IMG/VR virus record: IMGVR_UViG_3300037524_000450
Span: 18,784 to 82,783 of that record
DNA length: 64,000 bases
From: a virus
Lineage: Duplodnaviria; Caudoviricetes
Direction: 5' to 3' (one strand)
Below the pieces are notes generated by a model. That model was not told the origin of the DNA. It saw nothing but the letters and a program-made list of their open reading frames with translations, and searched no databases. A program made the position numbers and the translations under genes. Shown here in pieces: positions 821-50,425 of this stretch (position 1 is the stretch's first letter; the number at the start of each line of letters is the position of its first letter).

Positions 821-1207
821 ATGGCGCGTTGTAAACTAGTTGGCCTAAAAAAGCGCATTTCCTCGGCTCTTATCATGAGTCCTGAGGGTAAGCTTGAGCA
901 GCACCGCTTCCAAAAGGGGAAAGAACTAGAGCTGGATAGTAGCCAGCTTACTTTTCACGTTCAGCGGTTGATTAACCAAAAAGTTGTCAAGCTTGTGATG
1001 CTTGAAGAAAATATGGAGATTCCAGTAGTTTTAGAGGAAAAACCTCTCGAAGTAGATAACGAGGAGTTCTTTATTACTACAGGAGTCAATACTTTTGAAA
1101 CTGATAAGGACTTGGACGAGGCAGCCCCCAAAAAGAGACGGGGTCGCAAGAAGAAGGTAGAAGATACCGAAGTTATTGACTTGGATGAGGATGAGAGCAC
1201 TTTATAA
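821..1207 (+). CDS. hypothetical protein with basic patch and acidic C-terminus
   Basis: GGAGG precedes ATG 821. Contains PKKRRGRKKK and an acidic tail. Confidence 0.65.
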   Translation: MARCKLVGLKKRISSALIMSPEGKLEQHRFQKGKELELDSSQLTFHVQRLINQKVVKLVMLEENMEIPVVLEEKPLEVDNEEFFITTGVNTFETDKDLDEAAPKKRRGRKKKVEDTEVIDLDEDESTL

Positions 1208-1224
1208 GATTTTAGGAGGAAAAG

Positions 1225-3617: not shown

Positions 3618-3640
3618 GGACATGATTAGGAGGATTTACC

Positions 3641-4177: not shown

Positions 4178-4219
4178 TACTCAGTTGTTAATAAGAACAT
4201 TCTATATTATAAGAACTTT

Positions 4220-4261
4220 TAGCCTGCCGTATTCTTTTTATAAGAGGCAGGCTATATTTTT
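4220..4261 (+). terminator. intrinsic terminator after the tail tube gene
   Basis: Stem TAGCCTGCC (4220-4228) / GGCAGGCTA (4246-4254) followed by TATTTTT. Confidence 0.7.
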
Positions 4262-4298
4262 AAAGGCCGATAATTAAAGTATCAATTTGGAGGATACA

Positions 4299-5129
4299 AT
4301 GGGTGAATTCGATTTCTTGGAACCAATTCCTAAAACTAGTGTGACAGTTAAACTTCCGTCTAGAGGCGTGCTCTACCCTAAAGAGCACCCGGCTAGTTCT
4401 GGGAAGTTGACATTAACCCCAATGACAATGTTGGAAGAATCATTGTTAATGTCCGACGGCGGGTTGGACTCTGCAATTGATAAGATTTTGAGACGTTGCG
4501 TAGTCGAAAATGTAGATGTTAATACCCTTATTGGGTCAGACAAGTTTTTTTTGTTTATCATGCTTAGAGCAATTACTTATGGCTCTGAGTACTCATTTAC
4601 TTGGACGTGTACAAAAGAAAAGAATGGCAAGCCATGTACTTATAGAAATACCACAAAAGTTTCTATCCCTGACGGGTTTAAAGTTAAGTATTTGGCTGAC
4701 GATGATAAGGAGCCATTTGAATTTGTACTCCCAGATTGCAAAAAGACTATCTCTTTCAAGCTCCTGCGTGGAACAGACGAGCCTAGAATTGAAGCGTACG
4801 CCAAAGAGATTGAGTACCAAAAAAATGAGGGCATTGACCGTGTAAACACCACGCTTGCTTTCAGGCTTATCTGCCATATTGTTGCTGTTGATGGCAAGCT
4901 AGTCAAGGGTGCTCCTCAGGATAAGCTGATGGCCTTTGTTAATTCTTGGACAGCCAAGGACCGTCAGGCTCTCCAGCAAAAGATTAATTTCTATACTCCT
5001 GGTATCGACACAAGCCTTAAGGTTTCCTGTGAGAAGTGTGGTGAAACACACGAAATGGAGATGCCTTACACCGTAAACTTTTTTCGCGCAGTCGATGATT
5101 CCGGAGTTGAAAACCCAAAGGCAGATTAA
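4299..5129 (+). CDS. tail/baseplate hub assembly chaperone (T4 gp26/gp51-like)
   Basis: VKLPSRGVLY, MTMLEE, DKFFLFIMLRAITYG and a CEKC zinc knuckle. Lies between tube and tape measure. Confidence 0.85.
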   Translation: MGEFDFLEPIPKTSVTVKLPSRGVLYPKEHPASSGKLTLTPMTMLEESLLMSDGGLDSAIDKILRRCVVENVDVNTLIGSDKFFLFIMLRAITYGSEYSFTWTCTKEKNGKPCTYRNTTKVSIPDGFKVKYLADDDKEPFEFVLPDCKKTISFKLLRGTDEPRIEAYAKEIEYQKNEGIDRVNTTLAFRLICHIVAVDGKLVKGAPQDKLMAFVNSWTAKDRQALQQKINFYTPGIDTSLKVSCEKCGETHEMEMPYTVNFFRAVDDSGVENPKAD

Positions 5130-5316
5130 GTTTGATCTGATGTACTACCTGCATATGCGGTATGAGGAAATAATGACTATGGAGCTTTCAGAACTTTTGT
5201 GGTACTACAAAAAGCTCAAGGAAGTTAAAGATTCTGAATTTGAGTTTGAAAAAATAAAATTGGAGCTTAATTTAGCAGCAGCAGGGGTTAAGAACGCGAA
5301 TAAGATATTTAAATAA
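5095..5316 (+). CDS. second tail-chaperone ORF, probably a frameshift extension of the upstream gene
   Basis: Overlaps the upstream gene in the +1 frame and has no clear RBS. LMYYLHMRYEEIMTMELSELLWYY is typical of the small ORF before tape measure genes. Confidence 0.7.
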   Translation: MIPELKTQRQIKFDLMYYLHMRYEEIMTMELSELLWYYKKLKEVKDSEFEFEKIKLELNLAAAGVKNANKIFK

Positions 5317-5327
5317 GGGTATAACAC

Positions 5328-8144
5328 ATGAGTAGTTTAGACCAATCACTGTCATTAAAAGCCCAGCTTAGGGATGAAGTTAGCCCAGCACTTGAAAAAA
5401 TTAATAGAAGTGCTAAGACAACACAGGGTGCTTTAGAAGAACTGGGTAATGATGCTAAGAAAGCCGGAGAAGTTCTCGGGGCTGCTGGTGAAAGTATGGC
5501 CGGGGCCAATAAAAGGGCTGCCGAAAAAGTTCAAGAAGATCTCAAGAAAACAGGGGGTGTTTTCAAAGAGCTAGGCCAAGAGGCTCAGCAGTCTGCTAAA
5601 CAGGTAGGGGAAGCTCTTGATGGTGCTTTCAGGTCTAGTAAACAAGCTCGGTCAGTAGACGAATTAGACGAAGAACTTGAAGGGTTAAACAGAACACTCA
5701 AAGGGATGGCTTCTACTAATCGGCCTATGGCTGGTAGAGCAAGAAACGTCCGAGCTATTGGTCAAGATACTATTAATAAGAAAGTTATCCCGGCGTTCCA
5801 AGAGTTACACAGCACCCTAGAAGAACTTCCTGATACTTTGACCGGAGTTAATGCTGGAGTACGTAGCCAGATTTCTTTGTCTGACAAAATGTCTAGTGCC
5901 TTGGACGGAGTTAACCGTAGAATTTCAGGGCTAGGAAAAGTTTTTGACAAGCTTAAAGCTACGTTTATAGACGTTGCAGGCGCTGTCACAAGTAGCTGGT
6001 TTGCTGTGCAAGGCGCAAAAGTTAGAGAAGCGCAGGTAACGGCTGGGAGACAAAGAGGAAGAAAAAGCTTTGCCGCTATGGAAAAGCTGACCCCAGATAT
6101 TCAACGAGCAGCTATGGCTCCTGATGATGTTTGGGGGCCAGCGTACGAAAAACTCTTAGACACTAGTTCACTAGCCTTAGAAGAGTTCCCTCGAATGATT
6201 GACCAGATGACGCAGCTTTCTAAGGCAACTGGTCTATCTACAGATGCTTTTGCAGAACTCTTTGTCCAGATGACTGAACTCTCCGGGTTAACTGGGGACG
6301 AGTGGCTCGATGTTACAGAGAAGATAAACTTTTTTGCCTCTTCTAGCCGTGCCAGTATTACAGATCTTCATGGTGTTATATCCAGTGCTACAGAAGAAAT
6401 GATTGGGTTTAGCCGAGAAGCTAGAAAAGCCTACGCTGAGAGTAGTATGGCGGCTGCTGCTCAAACTGCTAATGCTGGTTTAGGTGCAGGGGCAGCCCAA
6501 GATTACTTTACAAAAGCCCTTACTGATATTGAATTTAGAACACGACTACAGGGGCTAACTTCTAGGTATGGAACCGGCCAAGATCTCGGAGAACTTATAG
6601 CTGGTGGGAAAATTGGAGATTTTAACGCAGAAGTAGCCACTGCCATGGCTAAGTTTACCCGGCAAGAGTATACTGACCGGGGTCTAAACCCTATGTCCGA
6701 CCCGGAAAGAAGGGGATTTTCTGCTGTAGCTGCTGGGCTTTCTCCAGAAGAAGGTCTTCGATATGCCAATCGTTTAACTGAACTTGAAAAGCAGGGTAGA
6801 GACTATTTTGCCGAACTTGCTAGACTTGTAGCAGAAAGCAAAGAGACAGATATTGCGGGTCTAACTGGGGATATTCGTGGTACAGCCGCTGAAAAATTAC
6901 AGCAGTTGACTGCCGCAGCTAATTCAGCCGGTATGGATATTGGTGTTCACACGGTTAAAGCTATTGAACAAGGTATGGACCCGCTTATAGCTGCGACCTT
7001 TAACATGTCAAACAAGCTAGACGAAATGCCTGAAATGGCGAAAAAAGGAATTGCCTTTTTTAGCATTGGGCTTAACTTAATGTCTGCTCTTAAAAACTTC
7101 ATTCCTGGTTTAGCCGGTGCTTTAGAAGGGCCGCTAGAGACACTAGCTGGGGCTACAATTGCGGGCATAACAGCTAAGAATGTTTTGGAGGGGGGAGATG
7201 TCAAAGCACAAGCGGCTGCTTTAGCCCCCGGTATGCCTGAGCTACAAGCTGAGATTGAAAAGCAGCTTTATAACAAGCTACAAGATTATGATGCTGGGAA
7301 TATTGTTGGGGATAGTCGTAAACACTACGAGATACCCGTAGTGCCCACACCCAGGGATCTAACTCCAGCAGATTATGAACCCAATAAGGAAAGGTTTAAA
7401 CGAGAAGTGGTTGGGGCTGTGTCAGAAGGGTATCAAGTATTACAAAACCCAGAAAAAAGCGCAGTAGACAGAATGGAAACATCTGTCAAACTTGTTCAAC
7501 AAGCCATTAATACCACACAACAACAGGGTTCTCTAGGTGCGAGTGAAACAGCATTAAAGGCAGCATATTTTCAAGATAACAGAGACAAAATGTTAGAGTA
7601 TGGGTCTAAGGCTTTTAAGGACGTTTGGATAGAAGATATAAAAAGTATACCAACTATGATAGCAACCGGGACGAGATCAGCAGCAGCGGCAGAAGCCCAT
7701 GTAAGATACGATGCTATAGAGAAGTTGTTGAAGGCTTCCCCAGAAGAAATGATGACCATGGGAGACCAGCTATCGCTTATTGTTTCTGATGCACAGGCAA
7801 AATTAAGCCCAGAGGTGCAAAAGCAGTACGGAGAAGCAATAAGAAATAACCTTATTGCTCTGGATGAAGTTACAGACCAATTACAGGCTACTTTGACTAA
7901 AGAAGATTTAAACGATCCTAAAGTTCAAGAGCTACAAAGACAGTACAATGATCTTATGAGTAGGCTAATTACATCTGTAGAAACGGTTGGTAAGGAAACG
8001 CTCACAAAAACAGATTTGATAAACCTTGTAACTGAACTTAGAAAAAGCCCCTTACCTCCACCAACATCGCAAAGGACAAATGAGGGCGTTGACCATACAG
8101 ACCCAGCAACAGAAAGACATACAACACGTAGCCACGGGAGATAA
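5328..8144 (+). CDS. tape measure protein
   Basis: 938 aa, Ala/Leu/Gln-rich and helical. Canonical position after the chaperones. Confidence 0.85.
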   Translation: MSSLDQSLSLKAQLRDEVSPALEKINRSAKTTQGALEELGNDAKKAGEVLGAAGESMAGANKRAAEKVQEDLKKTGGVFKELGQEAQQSAKQVGEALDGAFRSSKQARSVDELDEELEGLNRTLKGMASTNRPMAGRARNVRAIGQDTINKKVIPAFQELHSTLEELPDTLTGVNAGVRSQISLSDKMSSALDGVNRRISGLGKVFDKLKATFIDVAGAVTSSWFAVQGAKVREAQVTAGRQRGRKSFAAMEKLTPDIQRAAMAPDDVWGPAYEKLLDTSSLALEEFPRMIDQMTQLSKATGLSTDAFAELFVQMTELSGLTGDEWLDVTEKINFFASSSRASITDLHGVISSATEEMIGFSREARKAYAESSMAAAAQTANAGLGAGAAQDYFTKALTDIEFRTRLQGLTSRYGTGQDLGELIAGGKIGDFNAEVATAMAKFTRQEYTDRGLNPMSDPERRGFSAVAAGLSPEEGLRYANRLTELEKQGRDYFAELARLVAESKETDIAGLTGDIRGTAAEKLQQLTAAANSAGMDIGVHTVKAIEQGMDPLIAATFNMSNKLDEMPEMAKKGIAFFSIGLNLMSALKNFIPGLAGALEGPLETLAGATIAGITAKNVLEGGDVKAQAAALAPGMPELQAEIEKQLYNKLQDYDAGNIVGDSRKHYEIPVVPTPRDLTPADYEPNKERFKREVVGAVSEGYQVLQNPEKSAVDRMETSVKLVQQAINTTQQQGSLGASETALKAAYFQDNRDKMLEYGSKAFKDVWIEDIKSIPTMIATGTRSAAAAEAHVRYDAIEKLLKASPEEMMTMGDQLSLIVSDAQAKLSPEVQKQYGEAIRNNLIALDEVTDQLQATLTKEDLNDPKVQELQRQYNDLMSRLITSVETVGKETLTKTDLINLVTELRKSPLPPPTSQRTNEGVDHTDPATERHTTRSHGR

Positions 8145-8153
8145 GTATAAATT

Positions 8154-8774
8154 ATGGCATACTCAGGGGACAAAGACATTGCAAAAGTTTTATCGCCAGA
8201 AGCTTTCTGCTATATTATAGACCGCAAAGATAGCAGCAGGCTTGAATTTCAACTTATGCCTGATGTTATTTCAGAGTCTAAGTCAGCGCAGTACAACGAG
8301 ATTCCTATCATTGGTCGTAGCTTACCTCACCTGGGTTATGCCGCGTCTAGTTCTAGATCTATCGCGCTTACTCTAAGCTTTGTAGCTTTAAACAGCCCTA
8401 ACTCTGGTGGAAAATACACCACGGATTGGGTTAGAGATAGAGTTCGTTGGTTGGAGTCTAAAGTTTACCCTGAGTACTTGGACGGGTTTACTTTCCCTCC
8501 TAGAATGCTAAACATTGGTATTGGCTCTGTAATAGGCATGCAGTGTGTTATGACTTCGTGTACAACTTCTTGGCTTGGTCCTTGGGATGTAGAGGGCGAT
8601 TTAGCTAGGCCGTTTAGAGCGAATGTAGATTGTGCTTTTCAAGAAGCTGGCAAAAATGACGACGATATGGAACACCCCCATGGGTTTGACCATGCCATTT
8701 CGGGCAGAAACCAATGGGTTGAAGTTGGGGGGTCTACGGCAAATATGTACGTAGAAATTCCTCTGTCTATTTAG
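8154..8774 (+). CDS. tube initiator / baseplate tail-tube cap (gp48/gp54-like)
   Basis: LEFQLMPDVISESKSAQYNEIPIIGRS pattern, directly after the tape measure gene. Confidence 0.75.
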   Translation: MAYSGDKDIAKVLSPEAFCYIIDRKDSSRLEFQLMPDVISESKSAQYNEIPIIGRSLPHLGYAASSSRSIALTLSFVALNSPNSGGKYTTDWVRDRVRWLESKVYPEYLDGFTFPPRMLNIGIGSVIGMQCVMTSCTTSWLGPWDVEGDLARPFRANVDCAFQEAGKNDDDMEHPHGFDHAISGRNQWVEVGGSTANMYVEIPLSI

Positions 8775-8782
8775 GAGAAGTC

Positions 8783-9139
8783 ATGGCGACAAAAACATTA
8801 TTAACCCCACTTGAATCTGGTATCCCAAGAAAAGGAAAAGACATGCCATCTAGGCATCGTACTTCCTTTAAATACCAGGATGAAAATGGCCGATATTTCT
8901 TTGGGAGTTTCCCTGTCATAGACCTTCCACTACACCAAACAGACCAATTCTATGTTTTGGAAGCAGAAGATGTAGGCAGACCAGACTTAATTGCTTATAA
9001 GTTTTATAAGACGCCAAGTTTGTACTGGGTAATTCTTTGGGTTAACAATATTATTGATCCTTTTGAAGATATGTATCCTGGTATGCTTTTACGGTTACCC
9101 TCAACTGTTAGATTAACTGAGTATAATATCAAAGGTTAA
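8783..9139 (+). CDS. LysM-type baseplate protein (gp53 / tail X-like)
   Basis: RPDLIAYKFY-x4-LYWVILWVNNI-x-DPF-x4-PG-x2-LRLP. Confidence 0.85.
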   Translation: MATKTLLTPLESGIPRKGKDMPSRHRTSFKYQDENGRYFFGSFPVIDLPLHQTDQFYVLEAEDVGRPDLIAYKFYKTPSLYWVILWVNNIIDPFEDMYPGMLLRLPSTVRLTEYNIKG

Positions 9140-9144
9140 GCGAT

Positions 9145-10737
9145 ATGCCTTATTCTAAACGCCCTGAAATGTACCAAACATACATCCCTTTTGTAGAGAT
9201 GTATATTAGAGGTATTGACATTCTGCGCTCTCCTTCTGGGAAGCCTCGCAGTTTAATTTCTTTCTCGCATGATATCTATGCGGGTGCTGGTGGGTTTTGG
9301 ACATTAGAAATTTTTGACCCAGAATATGTTTCTGTGGAAGAACTTATGGTGTCCACACTTAACTACGCGGTTACCAAACCAGAAGATTCAGGCTATGGTT
9401 CTGACGAAGGTGGAGGTACTGACGAAGAAGCGGTTAACGTATCGACTGCTCATTTCCGTTATGGGTATCTTGGTCATAACCAGCAAGAACGAGTAGTAAG
9501 TACTTCTCCTAATGGAGAAGAGTTTTTTTATGGCATGGTTCATTCTTATATCCCAACGTATGAAACTAATGGTACGAGATTAGTTATCCGTGGGGATTCT
9601 TCTGGTTCGATGTGGAGAAGGCACCCTAAAATCGAGGGAGTTTTTACAGGATTAAGTGTGTACCAAGTAATCGAAAAAATTTGTGAAGAACGTAAATGGA
9701 CATTAGTCCCGTTAGGTATGGGGGCTAATCCAGAATCCTCTTTGCCATTACAGAAACGACCAGAAGATTTTAAGAAGACAGATGCTTCATACGATACGAC
9801 AGAAGAAGAATACCCGTCATTCACCATTAGAGAAGGGGAAGACCACGTACAATTCATTAATCGTTTGTGTTTAGAAGCACGCCCTAATGATTCTAAGTAT
9901 GACGTTTTTATGTGCCGACTAGAGTATAGAACGCTTAATGAAAAGCCTGAAACTAAACCTACGGGGTATTTGTATTTTGGCCCGGTTGACCATGTTACTC
10001 AAGAACCGGTTCGACAATATATATACATGCGAGACCCTCGGTCAGACATAATCCAGTTTAGTAATAACGCTCAAGTTTGGGCTGCCCAAAGTACTGGGGC
10101 AGCAGGGGTTGTGTGTACCTCTGAAGATGCTAAACTAGGCGATATACAAATGCGATATCTAGACGATATAAACCGTTATATGTATTATGATCGTGAGTCT
10201 CGGCCCCCTGTAACGTTTACTTCTTCTATGTTAGAAGATGTTGCTTACCCAGAAGGAGAGGTGGGTATTGAAGGGGCTGACGAAAAGAATGAAGGTGGTG
10301 GGTCAGACCCAAATCGGTTAAGTGTTAAAACAATGGCAAAAATGTCAGCTCCTGGGGCAGAACTACCTATTGCTACGGTTGATCGTCGTCAAGCTGACAG
10401 AGAAGCTATGCAGTATTGGCTTACGATGCAAAACTGGGTAACAAAAGGGAACTTACAAATCATTGGTGACCCTTCCCCAGAAATAGCCCCTGGTAACCTT
10501 ATTACTGTTCTTGTGCTAGTCCCGCAAGGAGACCCGGAAGCGCAGAAATTAGCTTTTCATTGGACTTCGTCTGTGTGGCTAATTATTGGTGTTAACCACG
10601 AAATTCGTCCTGGGGAAATGATAACGAACCTAGAACTAACCCGAACTGGACTTTCAAAGGGTGGTGCTACAACCAAGGCTGCATACAGAGCATTCCACAA
10701 AGCTTTAACTCCTGGGCAGTTGGAGAGGACAAGCTAA
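9145..10737 (+). CDS. baseplate hub protein (late control D / gp27-like)
   Basis: Lies between the LysM and spike genes. C-terminal GNLQIIGDP...W-x-IIGVNHEI...TNLELTR. Confidence 0.75.
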   Translation: MPYSKRPEMYQTYIPFVEMYIRGIDILRSPSGKPRSLISFSHDIYAGAGGFWTLEIFDPEYVSVEELMVSTLNYAVTKPEDSGYGSDEGGGTDEEAVNVSTAHFRYGYLGHNQQERVVSTSPNGEEFFYGMVHSYIPTYETNGTRLVIRGDSSGSMWRRHPKIEGVFTGLSVYQVIEKICEERKWTLVPLGMGANPESSLPLQKRPEDFKKTDASYDTTEEEYPSFTIREGEDHVQFINRLCLEARPNDSKYDVFMCRLEYRTLNEKPETKPTGYLYFGPVDHVTQEPVRQYIYMRDPRSDIIQFSNNAQVWAAQSTGAAGVVCTSEDAKLGDIQMRYLDDINRYMYYDRESRPPVTFTSSMLEDVAYPEGEVGIEGADEKNEGGGSDPNRLSVKTMAKMSAPGAELPIATVDRRQADREAMQYWLTMQNWVTKGNLQIIGDPSPEIAPGNLITVLVLVPQGDPEAQKLAFHWTSSVWLIIGVNHEIRPGEMITNLELTRTGLSKGGATTKAAYRAFHKALTPGQLERTS

Positions 10738-11657
10738 TGGCTGATATAAGACAAACCCCTGGTGACTTAGCCGTAGATTGGCGGCATGGTGAAGGTGTTC
10801 ATCGCAGGGATAAACTCCAAATTATGCGAGGAGTTGTTGAGTACAACAGAGATCCAGACCACAGGGGACGGGTTATTGTCCGTGTTGCCGATGACGGCCT
10901 TGAGATGCATCCAATTCAGAAGAACACTGCGTTACAACCAACCTTCGGTTTACCGTGGGCGTCTCCTCTTTTTGGGTACGGCTCTGGTTCAGGGTTTGGT
11001 GCGTACACTGTTCCGCCTGTTGGTTCGCGTGTTTTTGTCATGTTTGAAAAAGGCCACCCAGACCAACGTTTGTACTTTGGTGGCTGGTCAGCTAATAGTC
11101 CTCGTCAAAAACGATATGGAGTAACAAAGACGACACTAACACCCCCGACAAAAAAATCAACAATAGAACCCGGATTCAATGCAGAAGGCAACAAAGGGGG
11201 AGATTTTAAGTATCCTCCAAAGCCAACTCCTTACCAGGGCTACTGGATGGAAGAGCAGGGGCCTGAGAGGCCCCTAGAACTCGCGGAGATGATAGACCAT
11301 ACTCCGGACAGCCAGATGTACTTCAAAACGCTCAAGGGGGCTTCTCTGCTCGTTAAAGAGCGGGATGAAGCCGAGGAGATGGTTCTTACAGATCGTTTGG
11401 GTGCTGAATTACGTTTTGAATCCAACACGCCTATTGTCGAGAACGGTGTGCTGCGGCGGAATCGTGTATCCAGCACGCAGCACGAGGCTATGAGCCTGGA
11501 TAATCTAGCGCACTTTAAACATAGCGTTTCTTTGACTACAGCTAATCATGCCGGTCTCGAAATCGTGGCAACTACGAATGACGATGATTCTATCCTGCTC
11601 CAGACTCACCCGAAGGAGAATAGCCGAGGGTTGAGCCTTGGCGGTGGTGGTGGTTGA
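10737..11657 (+). CDS. baseplate spike gp5/VgrG/gpV-like, N-terminal part with OB fold
   Basis: GVVEYNRDPDHRGRVIVR, LPWASP and VPPVGSRVFVMFEKG. Ends at an anomalous TGA (see findings). Confidence 0.85.
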   Translation: MADIRQTPGDLAVDWRHGEGVHRRDKLQIMRGVVEYNRDPDHRGRVIVRVADDGLEMHPIQKNTALQPTFGLPWASPLFGYGSGSGFGAYTVPPVGSRVFVMFEKGHPDQRLYFGGWSANSPRQKRYGVTKTTLTPPTKKSTIEPGFNAEGNKGGDFKYPPKPTPYQGYWMEEQGPERPLELAEMIDHTPDSQMYFKTLKGASLLVKERDEAEEMVLTDRLGAELRFESNTPIVENGVLRRNRVSSTQHEAMSLDNLAHFKHSVSLTTANHAGLEIVATTNDDDSILLQTHPKENSRGLSLGGGGG

Positions 11658-11750
11658 GGCGCTGGCCGGTTCGCAGGTCGCGGGCCTGGAAATTCTGTAA
11701 GTGAGGATCAAGAGGGCATCATAAAGAATATCGAGCTTAAGAAAAGCCGT

Positions 11751-12113
11751 ATGGCGCTCGATTTGGACCCTGGAGAACAACGTATCCGTCTCGTTTACAG
11801 AAATGACAACGAGAACTTGGGTGTCATAGACTTTGACATCATTAGTAAGCGACTGGAGATTAAAGGCTTAGATGATATTGACGTTGTCTCTGACGCTGAC
11901 ATCAGTCTTCAAGCTCCTAGGATCAGCTTACTTGGCGATGTAGAGATCAATGGAGAAATACGTCATTGGGGTGGCAAGAAGCTCACCTTTATGGACAACG
12001 ACATGGAGCCATATGGGACACAGACACGTAATTACTGGCCCTATGATAAGCCTATCGCTCCTTACCAGATTGGTAATGGGGGAAGCTACGTGGAGCCGAG
12101 GGAGTATAAGTAA
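11751..12113 (+). CDS. C-terminal beta-strand part of the spike protein
   Basis: Same frame as 10737 with no RBS. ISLQAPRISLLGDVEING is a typical gpV/gp5 C-terminal strand repeat. Confidence 0.65.
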   Translation: MALDLDPGEQRIRLVYRNDNENLGVIDFDIISKRLEIKGLDDIDVVSDADISLQAPRISLLGDVEINGEIRHWGGKKLTFMDNDMEPYGTQTRNYWPYDKPIAPYQIGNGGSYVEPREYK

Positions 12114-15100
12114 TGGCTGAAGTTCAAGGAGATATCCTAGCTTTATACAAATACTACAGACTTTCAGACTATGAGAGTACTTGTTTAACTTTAAAGAATA
12201 AGATTCTTATAGAGTCTGCCATATGGTTTGAAGGCTATATGGATTTCTCCTTTAAGTGTTGCCGCTTTGAAAAGCCCATATACTGGGGCGTAGAGGGGGC
12301 ACGACTTGAGGGGGATACTAGAGGCACAGACGAGAACGATGACACGTTCCCTATTTATGGGTCCAACGGGTTAAACTTTGACACCTGTACGTTTACGCCT
12401 GATGCTCCAGTAACTATAGAGGCAAACTGCGTTGCTCTTTTTATAAATTGTGTTTTTGAGGGAGACCAAGTTTTTACTATTGGGAACAATACTCGTGTAG
12501 AATTTATAGACTGTACATTTAATTTGTGGCGTTTCGATATCACGGATTATTGTGACGTTCGTTTCCGTCGGTGTACTTGGACCTCTCCTCGTTACCATGC
12601 GACTATTGCTAATGGCTGCCAATGTACATACCATGATTGTGAATACAACATTGCTCAAACGTACGTGATGAACATTAGCCAAGATAGTAAAGTTATTATG
12701 ACTGGGCATACGCCTGTAGACATTACTTCAGGTATTACAATGTTCATAGTGTCGGATAAATCTTCTTTGGATATGTATAATTTTGGTACACTAAGCACAC
12801 CAGAATCTTGTTTAGATATTGATGACTCTAAGTATAAAGGTCGCAAAATAAAATTGATGTCTGCGGTTAAGGACACAGTTGTCGCAAATAATAAGGCTGA
12901 AGTATTTTTGAAAGAAGTTGACGAAATTATTTCAGTTTTAACTGCCCTAAAGTTTACAGATTCTCTTCTTCGTATGGAAGTAAATCAACTTACACAAGGA
13001 ATAATTCATGGAATTGAGGCTTTTGACCAAAGTGAAATTATTGTTAAAGACTTTGACAAAATAATTGGAATAAACTTGGACGCGATTTGGGGGAGCGAGT
13101 CCAATTTTAGAGTGTTTGATGGTAACATCATTATGAACGAATCAGAAGCAGCCGGGATTTATTTAACCGGGGTTAGTAAATCTATATTTAAGAATATTTC
13201 AGGAAAGATTCAGGGCATGTTTTATGGTATTAACATAAACGATCAAGCTGAAATATCCATTGATACTTGCCCTCTAATTTATGGCGTTATTTATTATGGT
13301 ATTTTTTATAATAATCCTAAAATTGAATGCATAAATGTGGACACAATTAAGGGATTAATCCATGGTATTCATGGAGTAGACGGTACCCTTAGAATAAGAA
13401 ACACCAGTATTGAGATCTATGGTGAAACTGAACATGGGATGGACATAACAACCACCCTGTATGAGTTTAAGGACATTGACTTTATTCACGGGCTGCTTAA
13501 AGGGGCGATCCTTACAAACTGTAAGGGAGTCCTTAAAGATGTTAGAGAAATCCAAGGAGAAACAGAAGAGGGTTTAGTTCTTCTGGGCATGTCAGGCCCA
13601 ACAGAATGGATCACCGTCCAGAAAATTTGGTCCCCTGTTATGCAGGGGCTTATCTTTACGGGAGACGCAGCGCAGAGTCGGTTTAGCGGTATCGAAGAAA
13701 TTTACTCTCTAACATTAGAGGGAGTTATCTGGACACAATCTGGTGGTGTAGCGGTATTTAGCCACTTTGGCCATATCTACTCTATACCCGAGTCCGGGCT
13801 GGAAGTACATATTTCTGAAGGTGCCATTTTAGAAATGGATATTGGGGACAAGATCACTTCAGAAGAAAAACATGCTATTGAAGGTGACAACGCAGGTATT
13901 TTGGTCTTTACTAATATTGACGAGATCAGTAGCCAAAATGGGGATATTGTAAAACTTACCGGATCTGGAGAAGACTCCAGCACCAAGTTTAAGACTATTC
14001 AGTTAATGAAAACAGACCAAGCTCCTGACGATGCTATTAAAATTGCAGGCAATGGTGTTGTTGTATTACAGGATATCCCAGAAATAACTGTTAAAGAGGC
14101 TGCTGAATATGTTGTCAAGCTTAGTTCTTTGAACCCTGGTTATGGGAATATTAAAGTACTAGACTGCAAGTCTATAACTGCTGAAAAAGCAAAGGGCGGC
14201 TTAAAGGTTTCAGATGCACTTATAACAGATGTTGTTGGTATAGACGAACCATGTGAGATTAAGTTAGAAGAAGCTGAAATAGCTGTTTTTGACGCATCTA
14301 GCACTAAACTATATTTTAGAAACTACTCTGAGATTTCTGCCACAGATGGAGAGGCAGATGGGGTTAAGCTTGATGACCTTAGTTTTTCTGGAAGTGAGAT
14401 GGAGCTTTATAACATAGAGCTTATTAAAGCTAAGGGGCATGGTATTAATATCACTTCTTCGGGGAAAATTAGCCTAGTAGAAATTAAAGAAGTGGATGTG
14501 TCTGAGGGTGAAAAAGACGCCTTGCACTACGAGGGGGAAGGGCACTTATACCTTCAGGGGCAGACTGTTCCAGTAAAACTAAGCGCAAAAGATGTTAGTA
14601 AAAATGCTATTTACGTGTTGGGCACTAGTATAGCCCAGGCAGAATTTGTTAATGTAGAGACACAAGCAGATAAAGGAAAGAGTATTTTTGAAAAAAGCGA
14701 TCTTCTCCTTGTTCGTAATAAGTTAAAAGGCGATGTATCGTTTACAGATTGTGTTGCTAGAAGTGTTCAAAATGTTTTCTCTCGGAGTATTGAACACGTA
14801 ACAGCAAAGGTGGATTATTATAACAGTGATATTACACTAGCTGTTGACCCTGGTGAAGAAACAGATTTTGTTGTTGACCCAGAAAGTGCTGTGTACTTAT
14901 TTAGGTCAGATATAACAGGGACAGGAAAAGTAAGTTCTGATGGTGTCATACATGGGGATATAAATGAGTTTGCTGTCCCAACAGTAGAAGGCACAACAGG
15001 TGTTTGGTTGTTAAATGTGTGTTCCCTCGATTCTACTGTTGATATTTCAAATAGCGCGGCTATTTTTAATTTATGCACAAGTGCTCAAGCTACTTCTTTG

Positions 15101-43802: not shown

Positions 43803-45919
43803 AACCTTCTCCGAGAACGTAATTCTTCTTTGTCTTGTTTGTACTGTAGTCTGTCCATAGCGTCGTTGTAGGCTTCCCGGTGACGGTCTGCTTTCCGTTG
43901 AAGATACTTCTTGTTCCCGGTTACAACGTCTTTGACTTTTTTAGCCCCATACAGAGCGGCTGCTGTGTAGAGTAATTTTTTACCAGTATGCCCACTAGCT
44001 GCCCACTTGGCCCAGTGTCCTACCCCTTTGGCTGCTCCCTTTACAGTCCCTTTTACTGCTTTGCCAACACCCGCTTCAATGTTAGAACCTATCTGGCTTA
44101 GGTTGTTTTGTAGCGAGGTTTCAGTAATGTGTGCGGCTCTACTTCTTAGCATTTCTTTAACCGCCCCAGGAATTGGGTCATCAGTTGCCCGTTTTCTTGG
44201 GGAGTTAAAGTGCCGAGGGGAACGTCTTACCTTTCCTTGGGTAGCCGAAATCCATTGATTTCGTTGATACTGGTTTACATCTTTCATTTGTTTATAGGGG
44301 TTTAACTCAAACCCAGATAAAGCTCCTGCTCCAATAGACTCAGCCACTGGGCGTTTTGCACCAATATTACCAAGTCTGTTTCCTATAGATTGCCCAATTC
44401 CTCCTGCTACTCCAACGGCAGCCGTTTTACCTAATAGTGCAGCCGCCTTCTTTCTTGCAAAGCTTCCCGGTGCTCCGACAGCCCCACGGTACATGGTACC
44501 AAAGAAACCTTCGTACATGTTGTTAATAGTATCGTCTAGGCTTTCTCCGGAGAACGCCCGCTTGATTTTAGTCCCAGCATAACTTAATCCACCGTCAATA
44601 ACGGCTTGTTTAGCCATGCTGCCTGCATGCTTTTTGACAACACCCATAGCAAGGCGACCAATACCACCAAGAACAGCACGCGCTCCAATAGCTCCAGCAG
44701 CGGCTACTGGAGCAATTTCATAAATGTTGTCAATGATGTCTTCTAGACTTTCTGACTTTTTCATAAAGCCTTCTTTTGCTCCCTTGACAGCATTTTTTAA
44801 ATCTTGTGTGGCTTGCCGACGATATGTTTCGCCTCCGCGACCTTCCATACCAACAGCTTTAACTCTTCGCTTGGCAGCATCCCAAGCAGCCGTTGCATGG
44901 GGTTTAACATTTTTCCAAGTATTGCTCGCACTCTTTTTGAGTGTTTTCCAGGCGTGTTCTGCTTGTGGTTTAAAATTTTTCCAAGCAGCATGAATATCAA
45001 ATTCATAGATGTTGTCTACAGTTTCCATAAGTCGGTCACTAACCATGATGTCTTCCTTTCGGGTGTTTGTCTTAGTTGCAGTATTGAGTTTGAACTTACT
45101 TTGGTCTATAGACATACCTACTCTATTTACTGCTTCCGGGTCCATATGCTTAGATACTGCAATCTGAGCATTATATAGTTGGGGGCCTTGTTGTTTTTTA
45201 GCAACCGAACTTTTAGGACGAGCCTCGTCTGGATCGTTATTAATTCTGTCATTCTGTGCTGGGGCTTTTTGATTATTTTGAGCATGGGAAGGAAGGATCG
45301 GCCTATTCATGCCCATAGCTTGACTGGGGTCTTGTTCTTGCCCTAGTCTGTCTGGGGCAAAACTTCCAGTTCTTTCTTTCTTAGCTCTTTTAGCATCATA
45401 TACTTGTTGAGCATAAAGGGGGTTGGAAGCCATTTGAGCTTTGTGGGACATGTAGCCCCCGATAGCCCCTACAATACCTTGAAGAGCAGCAGCACCACCC
45501 ACAGCAGTTAGGGCACCCGTTATAGGATGGTCCAGGTTGTACTGTTTGGCTTGAGATATTTTACCTGCGGTCCACGTATTGGCTCGTGTCCACAGAGAGC
45601 CTTTCTTTTGTGCTGTACTGGTAGCTGCTTCCCGGATATCTCGCATATAACGGTGCATATGTTCTTCTCTTTCTTTTTTGTCCAATTTCTTTTCTCGCCT
45701 TGCTATATCCCTGTCAATAAGAGGGTTTAATAGTGCATCTGAAATTTTAGGAGATATTAACCACCCACCTGCATGGGCACCAATAGCTCGTATTGTCCGG
45801 GCTTGTCTGTGCCCTTTTAGGATCTTTTGCTCCTTAGGCGAAAGCAAATTCACTTGCTTTCTGTTGGCATTGATCCTAATCTTAGGATTATGAGGGTTTT
45901 TAGGGTCTTCTAGAAGCAT
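43799..45919 (-). CDS. basic modular protein, putative protease-processed virion-internal polyprotein
   Basis: The only long minus-strand gene with its own RBS (GGAG before ATG 45919, MLLE...). Three (L/M)E-x3-DN(I/M)YE-type spacers separate cationic amphipathic segments. Confidence 0.75.
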   Translation of the reverse strand: MLLEDPKNPHNPKIRINANRKQVNLLSPKEQKILKGHRQARTIRAIGAHAGGWLISPKISDALLNPLIDRDIARREKKLDKKEREEHMHRYMRDIREAATSTAQKKGSLWTRANTWTAGKISQAKQYNLDHPITGALTAVGGAAALQGIVGAIGGYMSHKAQMASNPLYAQQVYDAKRAKKERTGSFAPDRLGQEQDPSQAMGMNRPILPSHAQNNQKAPAQNDRINNDPDEARPKSSVAKKQQGPQLYNAQIAVSKHMDPEAVNRVGMSIDQSKFKLNTATKTNTRKEDIMVSDRLMETVDNIYEFDIHAAWKNFKPQAEHAWKTLKKSASNTWKNVKPHATAAWDAAKRRVKAVGMEGRGGETYRRQATQDLKNAVKGAKEGFMKKSESLEDIIDNIYEIAPVAAAGAIGARAVLGGIGRLAMGVVKKHAGSMAKQAVIDGGLSYAGTKIKRAFSGESLDDTINNMYEGFFGTMYRGAVGAPGSFARKKAAALLGKTAAVGVAGGIGQSIGNRLGNIGAKRPVAESIGAGALSGFELNPYKQMKDVNQYQRNQWISATQGKVRRSPRHFNSPRKRATDDPIPGAVKEMLRSRAAHITETSLQNNLSQIGSNIEAGVGKAVKGTVKGAAKGVGHWAKWAASGHTGKKLLYTAAALYGAKKVKDVVTGNKKYLQRKADRHREAYNDAMDRLQYKQDKEELRSRRRF

Positions 45920-45966
45920 TCTTGGGACTCCCAACACTATCATAATAAATAAAGTAATGATGTGTG

Positions 45967-46065
45967 TTCTGGGAAAGGTTATTTTTTATGGTCATTTTCC
46001 GTCCCAGAACGCATTCTGGGAATCCCAGAAGGCTTTAGGAGTAATTCCCAAACTTACTTCTGGGA
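45967..46065. repeat. cluster of five TTCTGGGA octamers in both orientations
   Basis: Copies at 45967 (+), 46002 (-), 46014 (+), 46023 (-) and 46058 (+). Confidence 0.85.
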
Positions 46066-46242
46066 ATCTAGGATTTATAAACCCCTGGGGGCCTAGGGAC
46101 GCCCCCCTAAACGGGTGGATTTTTCTAACCTAAACCCACGGAAAATCTGCGAGATTCTGTCTCAAAACCGTTCGCAAGTCGTTTGTTTTCAATAATTAAG
46201 CGAAAATTGAAGTTTCAAGCTATAGTTAATGAAGGGCGAGAA

Positions 46243-46268
46243 CCGCCCAACCGCCCGCCCACCCGCCC
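46243..46268 (-). other. G-quadruplex-forming motif
   Basis: The minus strand reads GGG-C-GGG-T-GGG-C-GGG (46268-46254), with a fifth GGG nearby. Confidence 0.75.
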
Positions 46269-46504
46269 ACTCTACTCAATAGGTAATACTACTGTCTAGA
46301 GGAGGAGCAACCCCTGCCTGGATCTCTGTCTGCTCAAGGCCAGAGTCTAGGACCAGGGGTACGTCTATACCCCGAGCTACGAATCAACTCCTCCGGCTGC
46401 CGGGGGAGGAAGCGCGTCGAAAACCGCCTTGGCGTCGAGTTACGGAGGGCCGTATCTCGCCCCGAGGCTTAACACGGGAGCAGCGCTCCCGAAAGGAGTC
46501 GGTC

Positions 46505-46882
46505 ATGCGTGGTTCGAAGAAGTCCTCGTCGGTGTCGCAGTTCTCGCTCATGGTGGTGCTGAAGCTGGAAGTGCTCTTCAGCAACGGTCCCGCGTGCCTG
46601 GACACGGTGGCGTTCATTCCCAACGACCTCCCGATCCTGGAGGCCCTCCGGGCGGAAGTGCCCGCCGGTTCGCGCCGCACCTTCAACGTGTCGCTGGAGA
46701 AGGCGGAGGCGCTCTACAACGCCGTCGTCGCCTACAAGAACTCCCAGCGCTACGGTTCGGCCTCGTGGCTCGCGGCGAAGTCGGCGCAGGTGGCGATGAA
46801 CTCGCTCCACGCCTACCAGGTGAAGGCCGGTGAGAACGCCCGCTTCACCCTCGTCGTGAACTCGAAGCCCGTCCAGGCGTAA
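46505..46882 (+). CDS. early-type hypothetical protein
   Basis: AAAGGAG RBS and strong GC3 codon bias. Confidence 0.75.
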   Translation: MRGSKKSSSVSQFSLMVVLKLEVLFSNGPACLDTVAFIPNDLPILEALRAEVPAGSRRTFNVSLEKAEALYNAVVAYKNSQRYGSASWLAAKSAQVAMNSLHAYQVKAGENARFTLVVNSKPVQA

Positions 46883-47051
46883 GTGCCTCGCTACAACTAG
46901 AAGCTGCAAGTCAGCATTCGGGTGGCCCCGCAAGGGGCCGCTCTGTAGAGCGCTCCGCCCCTGGGAGCGCTCTAGAGAGCACCGAACGTCGCGCTCTCTC
47001 CGCTTCGACGATCAACTTACTTGGCCGCATAAGGCCAGAAAGGGGAACACC

Positions 47052-47447
47052 ATGGGTGTTCGTCTGTACGCTGAGGTGCCGGTGTCGATTCTCCCCGCGC
47101 TGTTCATGGTCTCCGACGAGCAGTTCGCGGAGGCCCAGGCTCTCGTGGACGCCTGGTTCAACGTCCCGTGCTCGGCCTACGACGAGGAGTGTACCGAGGC
47201 GTGGGATGCCGTTCGCGGCCACTCCCTCGCCTCGGAACTCCTCGATTGGAGGCTCTCCGGCTTCGGGAAGTGGGGCGTCTCGGAGTTGGAGAACTTCCAC
47301 CCCGTAGACGACTGCTGCGGGACGTTCGAGCGGGAGTCGGTGGAGGTCATCTTCGACCTGTTCATCAACCGACTCAAGTCGAAGCGGCGGTACCGCATCG
47401 ACTGGGAGCTGTTCCGGCAGCACTGCTTCAGGTTCACCTGGAGCTAG
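47052..47447 (+). CDS. hypothetical protein (acidic)
   Basis: RBS AAAGGGG and GC3 bias. Confidence 0.75.
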   Translation: MGVRLYAEVPVSILPALFMVSDEQFAEAQALVDAWFNVPCSAYDEECTEAWDAVRGHSLASELLDWRLSGFGKWGVSELENFHPVDDCCGTFERESVEVIFDLFINRLKSKRRYRIDWELFRQHCFRFTWS

Positions 47448-47451
47448 GCGC

Positions 47452-47499
47452 GTAGCGCCACCCGGAGGGACGGCACGTCCCTCCTCCGGGTGTCACTAA
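47452..47499 (+). repeat. intergenic hairpin element, variant copy A
   Basis: TAGCGCCAC...CACTAA flanks are shared with copy D. Long stem CACCCGG-AGGGAC / GTCCCT-CCT-CCGGGTG. Confidence 0.6.
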
Positions 47500-47520
47500 A
47501 CACCTAGAAAGGAGCATCTT

Positions 47521-47796
47521 ATGCTCATCGGTAACCGGAACGGGCGCACCAGCTACCACTTCACCTTGCTGGTGGACAACGAGTGCGCCGGGTTCGAGGA
47601 CCATGTGTTCTTCGCCCCGCTGGAGGCGAAGCACATCTCGCAGATCCTCGACTTGGCCAAGCGGGCCGCCGAGGAGGAGGACGACCCGGAGACCGCGCAC
47701 ATGATCATGGACGGTCTCCTCGTCGCCCTCGCCAACGACGCGGGGCACCAGAACGTCGTGGAGGCGTTCTACAACACCCCGAGGTGGTACGCCTAG
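47521..47796 (+). CDS. hypothetical protein
   Basis: AAAGGAG RBS and GC3 bias. Confidence 0.75.
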   Translation: MLIGNRNGRTSYHFTLLVDNECAGFEDHVFFAPLEAKHISQILDLAKRAAEEEDDPETAHMIMDGLLVALANDAGHQNVVEAFYNTPRWYA

Positions 47797-47799
47797 TCC

Positions 47800-47837
47800 C
47801 ACCGTCCCTGCGCTCCTCCGGGAGCGCAGCATCGGTG
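47800..47837 (+). repeat. intergenic structured RNA element, copy B
   Basis: CACCG-TCC-CTGCGCTCC-TCCG-GGAGCGCAG-CAT-CGGTG. Confidence 0.75.
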
Positions 47838-47874
47838 TGACTATCAACGTTGCGAACCCGCGAAAGGAGTCCTT

Positions 47875-48186
47875 ATGAAGCAGCGTATCATCGGTCGGAA
47901 GGTGTCGGACAAGGAGTACAGGCTCACCCGGCTGGAGGCGGAGCTGCTCTACTACGCGGACGTGAAGTCCACGGGGCGTACTATCTGCACTCCCCTGCCT
48001 CTGAAACCGAACACCGGACGCCACATCTGCCGCACGGGTGCGGTGCTCTACCGGGCGAGCCAGATGGGCAGCCACCCTTACGTTCTCGTGGGTGCCGGTG
48101 CCCTGGAGACCATCGCCATGGACGCGACCACCCTCATGCCCGGAAAGGGCATGGACAAGGTGTTCGCTCAGATCAACCGGAAGTAG
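47875..48186 (+). CDS. hypothetical protein
   Basis: AAAGGAG RBS. Confidence 0.75.
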   Translation: MKQRIIGRKVSDKEYRLTRLEAELLYYADVKSTGRTICTPLPLKPNTGRHICRTGAVLYRASQMGSHPYVLVGAGALETIAMDATTLMPGKGMDKVFAQINRK

Positions 48187-48217
48187 CAGGCCGAATACGG
48201 CCAGAAAGAGAGGCGCT

Positions 48218-48508
48218 ATGCGTAAGTACCTGTTGGATCTTCGGCTGGAGGGCAACTGCTGCGCCGAGTGCGGCGCAGAGCTTGGGGCGGGATTCGGTCT
48301 CGATCCTGCTTGCGACTGCTGCAGCCCCAAGGCGGAGAACGCGGTGAACAATATCGAGCACGGTGATTTCGTCTTCGACGTGCTGATCACCGATAACGGT
48401 AACCTGATGTTCACCGTGTACGAGGTCGGCACCGGCCCGGATGACGAGGATAACCACATCGTGGATATCATCGTCGATAAGGCCACTCTCAAAGTGTCTT
48501 CCTTCTGA
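48218..48508 (+). CDS. Cys-rich (zinc-binding) hypothetical protein
   Basis: CCAECG...ACDCC. RBS GAGAGG. Confidence 0.7.
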   Translation: MRKYLLDLRLEGNCCAECGAELGAGFGLDPACDCCSPKAENAVNNIEHGDFVFDVLITDNGNLMFTVYEVGTGPDDEDNHIVDIIVDKATLKVSSF

Positions 48509-48509
48509 C

Positions 48510-48553
48510 GCTACGCTCCCTGCCCTCCCTTTCGGGAGGGCAGCATGGGTAGC
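48510..48553 (+). repeat. intergenic structured RNA element, copy C
   Basis: GCTAC-GC-TCC-CTGCCCTCCC-TTTC-GGGAGGGCAG-CAT-GG-GTAGC. Confidence 0.75.
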
Positions 48554-48577
48554 ATCATACCCGGAAAAGGAGACTGT

Positions 48578-48808
48578 ATGGCAACACGGATGATTAACGT
48601 GGACTACGGCGCAGGTGGTCGTGAGTACTTCGAGTGCGAAAAGTGTCGTCACGGGGTTGGCACCACTGGCCAACAGGCCAACAAGTGGAACTTCTGCCCC
48701 TTCTGCGGAGAGGGGATCGTGGACCACCGCTGGGTTTGTACCTACGAACCCGAGGACTCGGAAACTCCGGTTAGCGAGTTTCCTGCTTGGTACGTCAAAA
48801 AATCTTGA
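48578..48808 (+). CDS. zinc-ribbon protein
   Basis: CEKC...CPFCG. AAAGGAG RBS. Confidence 0.75.
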   Translation: MATRMINVDYGAGGREYFECEKCRHGVGTTGQQANKWNFCPFCGEGIVDHRWVCTYEPEDSETPVSEFPAWYVKKS

Positions 48809-48819
48809 AAGGAGGCTCT

Positions 48820-49050
48820 ATGGAGCACCTGCAGCGCAGGTTCACCCCGTTCGAGTGCCGGATGATCCGGCTGCTCGGACACCTGAACTGGGACATGATC
48901 GTCAACGACGGCATGTCCGCGCAGCACACCACGGAGTGCGGCTGCGAGTTCTCGCAGATCCGTCGCGTCATCAAGGACGCCGGATACATGCGCGAGGACG
49001 GGTTCTTCGACTGGGAACGGTTCGACCAGGACTACCCCTACACGGAGTAG
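48820..49050 (+). CDS. hypothetical protein
   Basis: AAAGGAGG RBS. Confidence 0.75.
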   Translation: MEHLQRRFTPFECRMIRLLGHLNWDMIVNDGMSAQHTTECGCEFSQIRRVIKDAGYMREDGFFDWERFDQDYPYTE

Positions 49051-49051
49051 C

Positions 49052-49094
49052 GCCACGCTCCCTGCCCCTTCGGGGGCAGCATGGGTGGCACTAA
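49052..49094 (+). repeat. intergenic structured RNA element, copy D
   Basis: GCCAC-GC-TCC-CTGCCCC-TTCG-GGGGCAG-CAT-GG-GTGGC-ACTAA. Confidence 0.75.
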
Positions 49095-49118
49095 CCACTC
49101 AGAAAGAAAGAGGTGCTT

Positions 49119-49322
49119 ATGAGCATGCGTAAGGATCGGATCGCCCGGAAGATGACCGTGCTGCGGATGAAGCGCGACTCGCTGCTCAGCGACCTGGACT
49201 TCTTCAAGGAGCAGGATCTCGACGAGAGCGACACGCGAAGGTTGGAGGTCTACAAGCTCCAGAAGCAGGTCGATGGCATCAACAGGGAAATCTTGTTGCT
49301 GCACTTCGAGTGGAACCGGTAG
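49119..49322 (+). CDS. small coiled-coil hypothetical protein
   Basis: AAGAGG RBS. Confidence 0.7.
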   Translation: MSMRKDRIARKMTVLRMKRDSLLSDLDFFKEQDLDESDTRRLEVYKLQKQVDGINREILLLHFEWNR

Positions 49323-49578
49323 TCTCAAGAGGGGCAGAAAGCTGAGACGGACTATCCTTCCGGATAATTAGAATGAACACGCTACGTGCTGTGTTCCGGA
49401 CGGGGGCGAACTATCAGCGGTATTCCCTGGTCGCGGGGAAGACCATGCTCGAAAACATAAACCCGAGGGTAGCTACAAGGAGGTGCGTATAGATCACGGG
49501 GTTGAGTCTGCCCAAAAACGCAGGTACGTATCTAGTCAACTTACGAACCAACGGCTCGAATTTTTAAGGAGGACTAAA

Positions 49579-50343
49579 ATGTCCAACACTCTGACCACTT
49601 CGCAGATCGCTTCGTTCGACCTGTTCGCCAACAACGTGAAGAGCTACCTGGACGGTGTGTCCACGACCACCAAGTCCAAGGTCGTCCGGATCGTCGAGAA
49701 GGCCACCTTCCTCGACCTGTGGAAGATCGTCGCCCGCCCGTCCAAGCTCGCCCCGGTCATGCAGACCGTGCAGTTCTTCGAGCAGAACGGGCGCACCAAG
49801 TCCAAGTTCCGCCTCCGGAACGAGGACGGCAGCCTGCGCGTGGACGAGGCCGGTGAGCCGGTGTTCAGCCGCACGCACGTCGTGATGTACAAGGCCGAGA
49901 CCTACCGTGCCCTCCGCTCGGAGATCACCGGTCTCGCCACCCCGGAGACCATCTACGGGATCATGTGGAAGGACGTGCCGTCCGACATGCAGACCAAGCT
50001 GCGGCAGTTCTACTTCCCGAACGCGAAGAACTCGAAGGGTGAGACCCTCCCGAGCTTCGTGCCGCAGCTCCTCGGCATCGTGCTCCGCAAGGGCCGGAAG
50101 CCCGTGAAGGGCGAGCGCCGCCACTCGTGGGCCGGGTTCGACTTCGTGATCGCCGGGTTCTACGGCACCGAGAGCACCCCGGTCGTGATCACGCAGGTCT
50201 CGGTGGCGAACAAGCCCTACCTCCAGAACCTCGCCACCTTCGCCCACATCGCCTGCCCGGACTGGGGCCAGGAAGAGGGCGTGAGCGAGGAGATGTCCAA
50301 GGCCGCTTGCGGCATCTACCAGAACCTGGAATTCTCCTTCTAA
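49579..50343 (+). CDS. probably highly expressed hypothetical protein (254 aa)
   Basis: TAAGGAGG RBS, extreme C/G-ending codon bias, and its own terminator. Confidence 0.85.
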   Translation: MSNTLTTSQIASFDLFANNVKSYLDGVSTTTKSKVVRIVEKATFLDLWKIVARPSKLAPVMQTVQFFEQNGRTKSKFRLRNEDGSLRVDEAGEPVFSRTHVVMYKAETYRALRSEITGLATPETIYGIMWKDVPSDMQTKLRQFYFPNAKNSKGETLPSFVPQLLGIVLRKGRKPVKGERRHSWAGFDFVIAGFYGTESTPVVITQVSVANKPYLQNLATFAHIACPDWGQEEGVSEEMSKAACGIYQNLEFSF

Positions 50344-50357
50344 GTGTGATAATATCA

Positions 50358-50383
50358 GGGGGAGCTTCGGCTCCCCTCTTTTT
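50358..50383 (+). terminator. intrinsic terminator
   Basis: GGGGGAGC-TTCG-GCTCCCCT followed by CTTTTT. Confidence 0.85.
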
Positions 50384-50425
50384 GAATGCCCCCTATATGG
50401 GGCCATTCAGAAAGAGAGTCGTTCT

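Follow-up and report, generated by a model that had tools for sequence, protein, structure and literature searches.

The RNase III sites of phage T7 are known cut sites that lie between genes of the early operon, on the coding strand. RNase III substrates are about two helical turns long; where they contain an internal loop or a bulge, cleavage is restricted to one bond, which leaves a protective 3' hairpin on the product (PMC1540722). Similarly, Bs-RNase III sites in the early messenger RNA (mRNA) of Bacillus phage SP82, and a polypurine 5' stabiliser from SP82 RNA, are cited in three papers (PMC4838370, PMC1935012, PMC7509114). There is a single, downstream cut in those SP82 targets that have internal loops (PMC1935012), and the ribosome site of SP82 mRNA contributes to mRNA stability (PMC7509114). 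In T4-type phages, intergenic motifs termed PeSL mark the points where indels and replacements between close relatives begin and end (PMC2839356, PMC4122927). Here, four intergenic hairpins (e1 to e4) are described from a 64,000-nucleotide (nt) stretch of viral DNA, hereafter the window, which comprises bases 18784–82783 of the 82.8-kb IMG/VR contig IMGVR_UViG_3300037524_000450. The contig, whose completeness is ~38% (CheckV), belongs to an uncultured contractile-tailed myovirus from a wetland. The hairpins are a real, conserved RNA family. On the model developed below, they are probably T7-type early intercistronic mRNA processing signals that act by cutting and protecting the transcript.

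Three of the hairpins, all on the + strand, share one architecture, designated type A: e2 (47794–47843), e3 (48506–48557) and e4 (49048–49093). Type A consists of an 11-position outer stem with one or two fixed one-base mismatches, a 3 × 3 internal loop in which UCC in the 5' arm faces CAU in the 3' arm, an inner stem of 7–10 base pairs (bp) and a tetraloop, giving a helix of 21–24 stacked positions. The upper stem is GC-rich, and the loops are often UUCG or GNRA. Folding energies are −30 to −35 kcal/mol with z-scores of −3.4 to −8.2 (e2, −34.8 kcal/mol, z −8.2; e3, −34.5 kcal/mol, z −6.1; e4, −29.8 kcal/mol), and all three hairpins are kept in the minimum-energy fold of their ~290-nt context. 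The window has three occurrences of the core pattern, whereas shuffles predict 0.02. A covariance model of e2–e4 scored 74.2, 75.5 and 65 bits on these hairpins and 20.4 bits on e1 (47453–47498, + strand); over the whole 82.8-kb contig it gave no copy beyond these four sites, and the elements all lie in the early block, within its first ~3 kb. Hairpin e1 has the outer stem of e4, but its interior is a 14-bp helix from which 3 nt bulge on the 3' side.

An earlier note, made from the sequence of the window, had reported three such elements and a variant. Pattern counts, folding and shuffles place all four where the note put them, with the architecture it described: an outer stem, the UCC/CAU loop, inner stems of 9, 10 and 7 bp running from CUGC to GCAG, and a short tetraloop. 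The limits had been drawn too narrowly, since the 11-position outer stem extends each helix to the coordinates given above. The variant (e1) does share the outer stem, as stated, but its interior differs, and it belongs to a second subtype, type B. The stop codon within the helix, the two interchangeable subtypes and the role of the elements at cassette joints, all discussed below, had been overlooked. The impression that the motif belongs to no named family held up: Rfam searches gave no family match, with chance matches to miRNA precursors alone (E > 0.7). A self-cleaving ribozyme was considered and rejected, since no Rfam ribozyme matched and the simple two-tier hairpin fits no known ribozyme fold. 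Similarly, a candidate fifth element after the 67-amino-acid (aa) gene (49317–49362) folds no better than shuffles, is not conserved in the related contig L195 and was discarded.

DNA pattern scans for relatives in IMG/VR, JGI metagenome contigs and GTDB genomes gave chance matches only, as checked by model or by reading. Megablast against known phages gave no match, nor did a 254-aa protein of the phage when used as a query for related loci in IMG/VR. Relatives were obtained via neighbouring proteins, and the contigs were then fetched (L123, L182–L186 and L191–L196). They range from close strains to phages in which the conserved 254-aa protein is just 45–50% identical. Contig L191, for example, is syntenic, with helicase, DnaB, primase and a large reverse gene followed by the small-gene block. 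All fetched relatives have elements in the same slots.

A model-fitted type A alignment of 13 copies (12 distinct) from 7 contigs has 95.3% of its cells in standard pairs, against 80% when shuffled and 37–48% when partners are slid. Changes on both sides of a pair were found in 12 of the 18 pairs, which none of 500 shuffles reached. The unpaired UCC/CAU letters are almost invariant across the alignment while the stems covary. The homologue of e4 at L191:9485–9533 carries compensatory changes. Among more diverged copies, the inner stem of L191:8743 is fully changed, and the loop letters of L192:1582 are UU/GCU. The compensatory stem variation first read from the window is thus found as covariation in homologues, where the earlier note had named its absence as one of the outcomes that would count against the proposal. 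In type B, conservation is mostly in sequence, with two covarying pairs. One inner-stem position passes from G-C in the window to G-U in L123 and A-U in L185, the path expected for a + strand RNA helix. Hairpin loops vary freely; the e2 loop (47817–47820) is exactly inverted in L123, and the e3 loop (48530–48533) is exactly inverted in three other metagenomes. Such reverse-complemented tetraloops are the flip expected of DNA-level palindromes, and show that the loop sequence is unconstrained.

Each of the 27 copies is intergenic and on the coding strand. In 17 of the 20 contexts with a called upstream gene, the base of the helix includes the stop codon of that gene, the exceptions being e1 of the window, L184:531 and L192:477. 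The stop is the basal triplet itself in 16 contexts, and lies slightly deeper in the stem in L182:777 and L183:588. In the window, the stop of the 91-aa gene (TAG, 47794–47796) opens the helix of e2, and that of the 96-aa gene (TGA, 48506–48508) opens e3, where TCA at the 3' base is its pairing partner. The helix of e4, the hairpin with the 7-bp inner stem and UUCG loop, likewise opens with the stop of the 76-aa gene at 48820–49050 (TAG, 49048–49050). Pairing at the helix base, TAG with CTA in e2 and e4 and TGA with TCA in e3, is thus itself a double compensatory change. The statement that each element starts near a stop codon therefore applies to e2–e4 in a stricter form, the stop being the first three bases of the helix. 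The TAG of e1 is not a gene stop and lies 8 nt past the real one (47445–47447). Upstream of the TAG, no conserved sequence was found in the compared copies.

Downstream of the hairpins the layout is also regular, and most copies in relatives have the same leader as the window. In most copies a purine-rich ribosome-binding site (RBS) begins 8 nt past the helix, with the start codon at +22 or +23. In the four copies of the window, the gap from hairpin to start is 22–32 nt. The leader after e1 (47499–47520, + strand), for example, carries its RBS 8 nt past the hairpin and ends at the start codon at 47521. The RBS is complementary to the extended 3' tail of Bacillus-type 16S rRNA. Leader and RBS are predicted to be fairly open, with mean unpaired probabilities of 0.34–0.63 in ~290-nt context. 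The two subtypes are interchangeable, the 103-aa gene having a type A hairpin before it in the window but a type B hairpin in L185.

For comparison with T7, a model was built from sites R0.3, R0.5, R1, R1.1 and R1.3 only, which were aligned and given an RNAalifold consensus, and both strands of 34 kb of the early regions of this clade were searched. The top 12 matches, every one of them on the + strand, comprised 11 of the elements and one further hairpin of the early block. The best scores were 31.7, 30.3 and 25.4 bits (E 2e-5, 5e-5 and 9e-4), the third being e2, scored on the identical copy L126:2214–2281; e3 and e4 scored 17.6 and 12.6 bits. In the reverse search, with the e2–e4 model on T7 800–6600 (5.8 kb), the gaps before genes 1, 0.5 and 0.3, corresponding to R1, R0.5 and R0.3, were among the top four matches, with low scores (7–13 bits). 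The T7 site coordinates are reportedly those of Dunn and Studier (1983), and their support here is positional only, in that the gaps lie before the named genes. Each model thus finds the targets of the other, in agreement with the analogy to T7 RNase III sites that the earlier note had proposed.

Both groups are intergenic in an early operon, on the coding strand, and in each a small internal loop separates a lower stem from an upper stem of 7–10 bp capped by a tetraloop, over about two helical turns. They also share letters, namely UAG at the 5' base, CUC in the 5' loop, AUG in the 3' loop and CACUA at the 3' base. In T7 R0.5 (L199 1428–1482), the gene 0.4 stop lies within the lower stem, as in the hairpins described here. 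The T7 R1 helix (L199 3101–3154) opens with UAG straight after the gene 0.7 stop. Overlap of stop codon and helix may be general to this class of signal. Type A has the interrupted two-turn helix that RNase III requires (PMC1540722), the interruption in mid-helix being the UCC/CAU loop in type A and the 3-nt 3'-side bulge in type B. The UAG/CUA helix base was also considered as a distal box of the E. coli type, and was rejected because the T7 R1.1 minimal substrate has its boxes in the upper stem (PMC1540722). In contrast to T7, the phage is unrelated, and its host probably is too. The internal loop is 3 × 3 rather than about 5 × 5, the GC-rich stems break the proximal-box preferences of E. 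coli (PMC1540722), and a second, bulged subtype is present. T7 sites are known RNase III cut sites, whereas the present hairpins are likened to them by sequence and structure model.

On the cut-and-protect model, the block from ~46.2 to 50.4 kb would be read as one long early transcript, and host RNase III, or a similar double-strand-specific nuclease, would bind each helix. Owing to the internal loop of type A or the bulge of type B, the nuclease would cut just once, on the 3' side and close to the conserved CAU. The upstream message would then end in a stable hairpin that blocks 3' exonucleases, and the downstream message would start a few bases before a strong RBS able to shield its 5' end. 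Each small gene would in this way yield a separately stable message. The long transcript, the cut and the enzyme are all inferred. Early mRNA of SP82 offers a parallel, since it too contains internal-loop hairpins, and the layout of a hairpin followed by a purine-rich RBS matches. The SP82 stabiliser reportedly lies just after a cut site. The e2–e4 model gave no meaningful match on SPO1 1–14000, the early region of a close relative of SP82. An extension of the model concerns the ribosome. Because the stop codon forms the first bases of the helix in most contexts, a ribosome finishing the upstream gene must melt the lower stem, which the nuclease would need, and translation might time the cutting; such gating is a speculative addition, considered improbable at present. 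If it were true, the linker would be a self-contained module for stop, cut and restart, and any open reading frame placed between two linkers could be expressed at once.

Several observations weigh against this model. The phage sequence was listed in none of the RNA runs that were checked for it. No RNase III gene was found on the 82.8-kb fragment, so that the enzyme would have to come from the host. Most matches with the T7-site model are weak, E being above 0.05 for 9 of the 12, and type B, which is kept more by sequence than by its two covarying pairs, barely scores (12.5 bits). In E. coli, RNase III favours A-U pairs beside the cut, and G-C pairs there suppress catalysis (PMC1540722). The G-C-rich upper stem beside the presumed cut is thus unfavourable by E. 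coli rules, although the enzyme of another host may differ. Among outer-stem mismatches, C-A is as frequent as G-U, and the strand is therefore not fixed by the pairing pattern alone. A promoter-like site on the + strand was sought in 45900–50400, and none was found. Finally, the strict conservation of UCC/CAU could point equally to a sequence-specific protein.

The linkers also mark the places where related phages differ. The 61 nt at 47452–47512, comprising the type B hairpin and its leader, are 100% identical in L182, where they lie between genes unrelated to those of the window. Likewise, the linker is 97–100% identical between phages whose shared genes are 64–74% identical, and in relatives two or three copies of type B border different small genes. 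The region was also compared with contigs from four other studies. A deletion joining 48565 to 48808 was found in three runs, with a 7-nt overlap at the RBS. A second, from 48183 to 48806, was found in other metagenomes and is also the form present in L123, and a third joins 46956 to 47452. In addition, foreign sequence begins exactly at 47452, 47497 and 47512 in other metagenomes. Two of the three mapped deletion joints, one being that with the 7-nt overlap, fall at RBS microhomology and not at a fixed point of the hairpin, which fits ordinary homologous or microhomology recombination. Since a linker of ~60–75 nt is nearly identical before unrelated genes, it serves as a homology patch for the deletion, insertion and replacement of cassettes. 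Comparison of sequences thus demonstrates that hairpin linkers are joints at which related phages, as judged from their contigs, gain, lose and replace gene cassettes.

Other functions were weighed for the same elements. The hairpins might be passive stabilisers or insulators that remain uncut, block 3' exonucleases and keep the next RBS free of pairing with the upstream gene; in this reading either the A-rich leader would be cut, by RNase Y, RNase E or another single-strand nuclease, or there would be no cut anywhere. The great stability of the hairpins, with their frequent UUCG or GNRA loops, the predicted openness of leader and RBS (0.34–0.63), the constant spacing from hairpin to RBS and the interchange of types A and B before the 103-aa gene would all suit such a role. 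It is nevertheless thought unlikely, as it leaves unexplained both the conserved unpaired UCC/CAU and one-base mismatches amid varying stems and the specific likeness to T7 RNase III sites. Those internal-loop letters, which stay the same in all 12 type A copies although the stems covary, are what an operator for an RNA-binding protein would predict. A later phage or host protein would read the internal loop, and would shut off or time early translation or load an antiterminator. The almost invariant sequence of type B and the confinement of the elements to the start of the early block (its first ~3 kb) are in keeping with this. Yet no candidate protein was found, the neighbouring genes being orphans without RNA-binding domains in Pfam, PHROGs and the protein atlas. 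Two different subtypes fill the same slot, and diverged copies alter the loop letters (UU/GCU in L192:1582). An operator is accordingly regarded as quite unlikely.

GC-rich hairpins placed right after stop codons could also be terminators or attenuators lacking a U-tract, separating individually transcribed genes. As the earlier note had remarked, the U-tract is absent, and this applies after every copy. The same block instead ends in a textbook intrinsic terminator after the 254-aa gene (50358–50377, + strand; 8-bp GC stem, UUCG loop and U-tract), which is 96% conserved in L192. Moreover, the 22–32 nt between hairpin and start codon contain no promoter-like site, nor room for one, and termination is considered very improbable. 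The conserved leader had itself been tried as a promoter and was rejected, as no promoter-like site was seen in it and no RNA polymerase gene was found on the fragment; the search for a T7-type polymerase was uninformative, its control having matched nowhere. At the level of DNA, a structured repeat with unpaired bases that flanks each gene, cassettes present or absent among strains and unrelated genes between identical linkers recall the integron, in which folded single-stranded sites are read by a recombinase. No match to a tyrosine recombinase (PF00589) was found in the 82.8-kb fragment, which is ~38% of the genome, attC core motifs were not seen by inspection, and the placement of two of the three deletion joints at RBS microhomology is at odds with a fixed hairpin point. 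There is scarcely any likelihood that the hairpins are sites of this kind.

The wider setting of the hairpins is as follows. The fragment encodes a sheath protein ~44% identical to the sheaths of Listeria phage LIS04 and Bacillus phage SP-15, together with a DnaB-type helicase, a primase and a methylase. Several wetland and soil metagenomes contain this phage or close strains of it. G+C content, ~45% in the structural and replication genes, rises abruptly to ~60% at 46000–50000 and is 50–55% downstream, an unusual split of composition inside one phage. The hairpins punctuate eight small orphan genes called as open reading frames on the + strand (46505–49322), which belong to no known families: 46505–46882, 47052–47447, 47521–47796, 47875–48186, 48218–48508, 48578–48808, 48820–49050 and 49119–49322. 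No function could be assigned to them from Pfam, PHROGs or the protein atlas. The zinc-ribbon-like 76-aa gene at 48578–48808 has weak matches to DUF7837 and to a Lar-like restriction-alleviation PHROG (E ~0.004), and is missing from contigs of three other metagenomes. In L123 this gene, the 96-aa gene and e3 are missing together (window 48184–48806). All three appear to be dispensable accessory cassettes.

A separate conserved hairpin cluster lies after the first gene of the block (46893–46998, + strand; z −4.8), outside the type A/B family. It would be on the same transcript as the type A and B hairpins if, as inferred, the transcript is single. These hairpins are conserved with compensatory and G-U changes in L185, and L191:8234–8299 scores 16 bits with the T7-site model. 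A 20-nt stretch just past the first early gene (46900–46919) is 100% identical in the distant L191 (8212–8231), with its counterpart at ~2050–2070 in L185. The hairpins beyond this stretch covary between the window and L185, and form a second conserved RNA element of the early transcript. In addition, the octamer TTCTGGGA occurs five or six times, in part as inverted repeats, in the divergent region that separates the large reverse gene from the early block (45960–46090). This cluster is kept in L185 (1040–1150) and L191 (6990–7095), relatives otherwise just 65–75% identical, and by its sequence may be an operator or an origin.

Set beside the known systems, the hairpin linkers resemble PeSL in that both are conserved short intergenic stem-loops which flank small orphan genes in a plastic early region and mark the boundaries of indels. 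In contrast, PeSL combines a terminator with an early sigma-70 promoter, whereas the conserved partner of the present hairpins is a ribosome-binding leader, with no promoter found. The linkers provide a clear case from nature, beyond the T4 group, in which regulatory sequences double as joints for cassette shuffling, and the population data place the same joints in several independent metagenomes. Such linkers could also be tried as compact insulating and processing parts in synthetic operons. The motif family is undescribed and not in Rfam, and it probably joins a known class of phage early-mRNA processing signals. Within that class it stands out for a helix that includes the stop codon, for having two interchangeable subtypes and for evidence of cassette exchange at the population level. 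That these signals occur in a lineage distant from T7 suggests a wide recurrence of the T7 design, with the letters of the loop and the helix base included, whether by the constraint of a conserved nuclease or by old descent.

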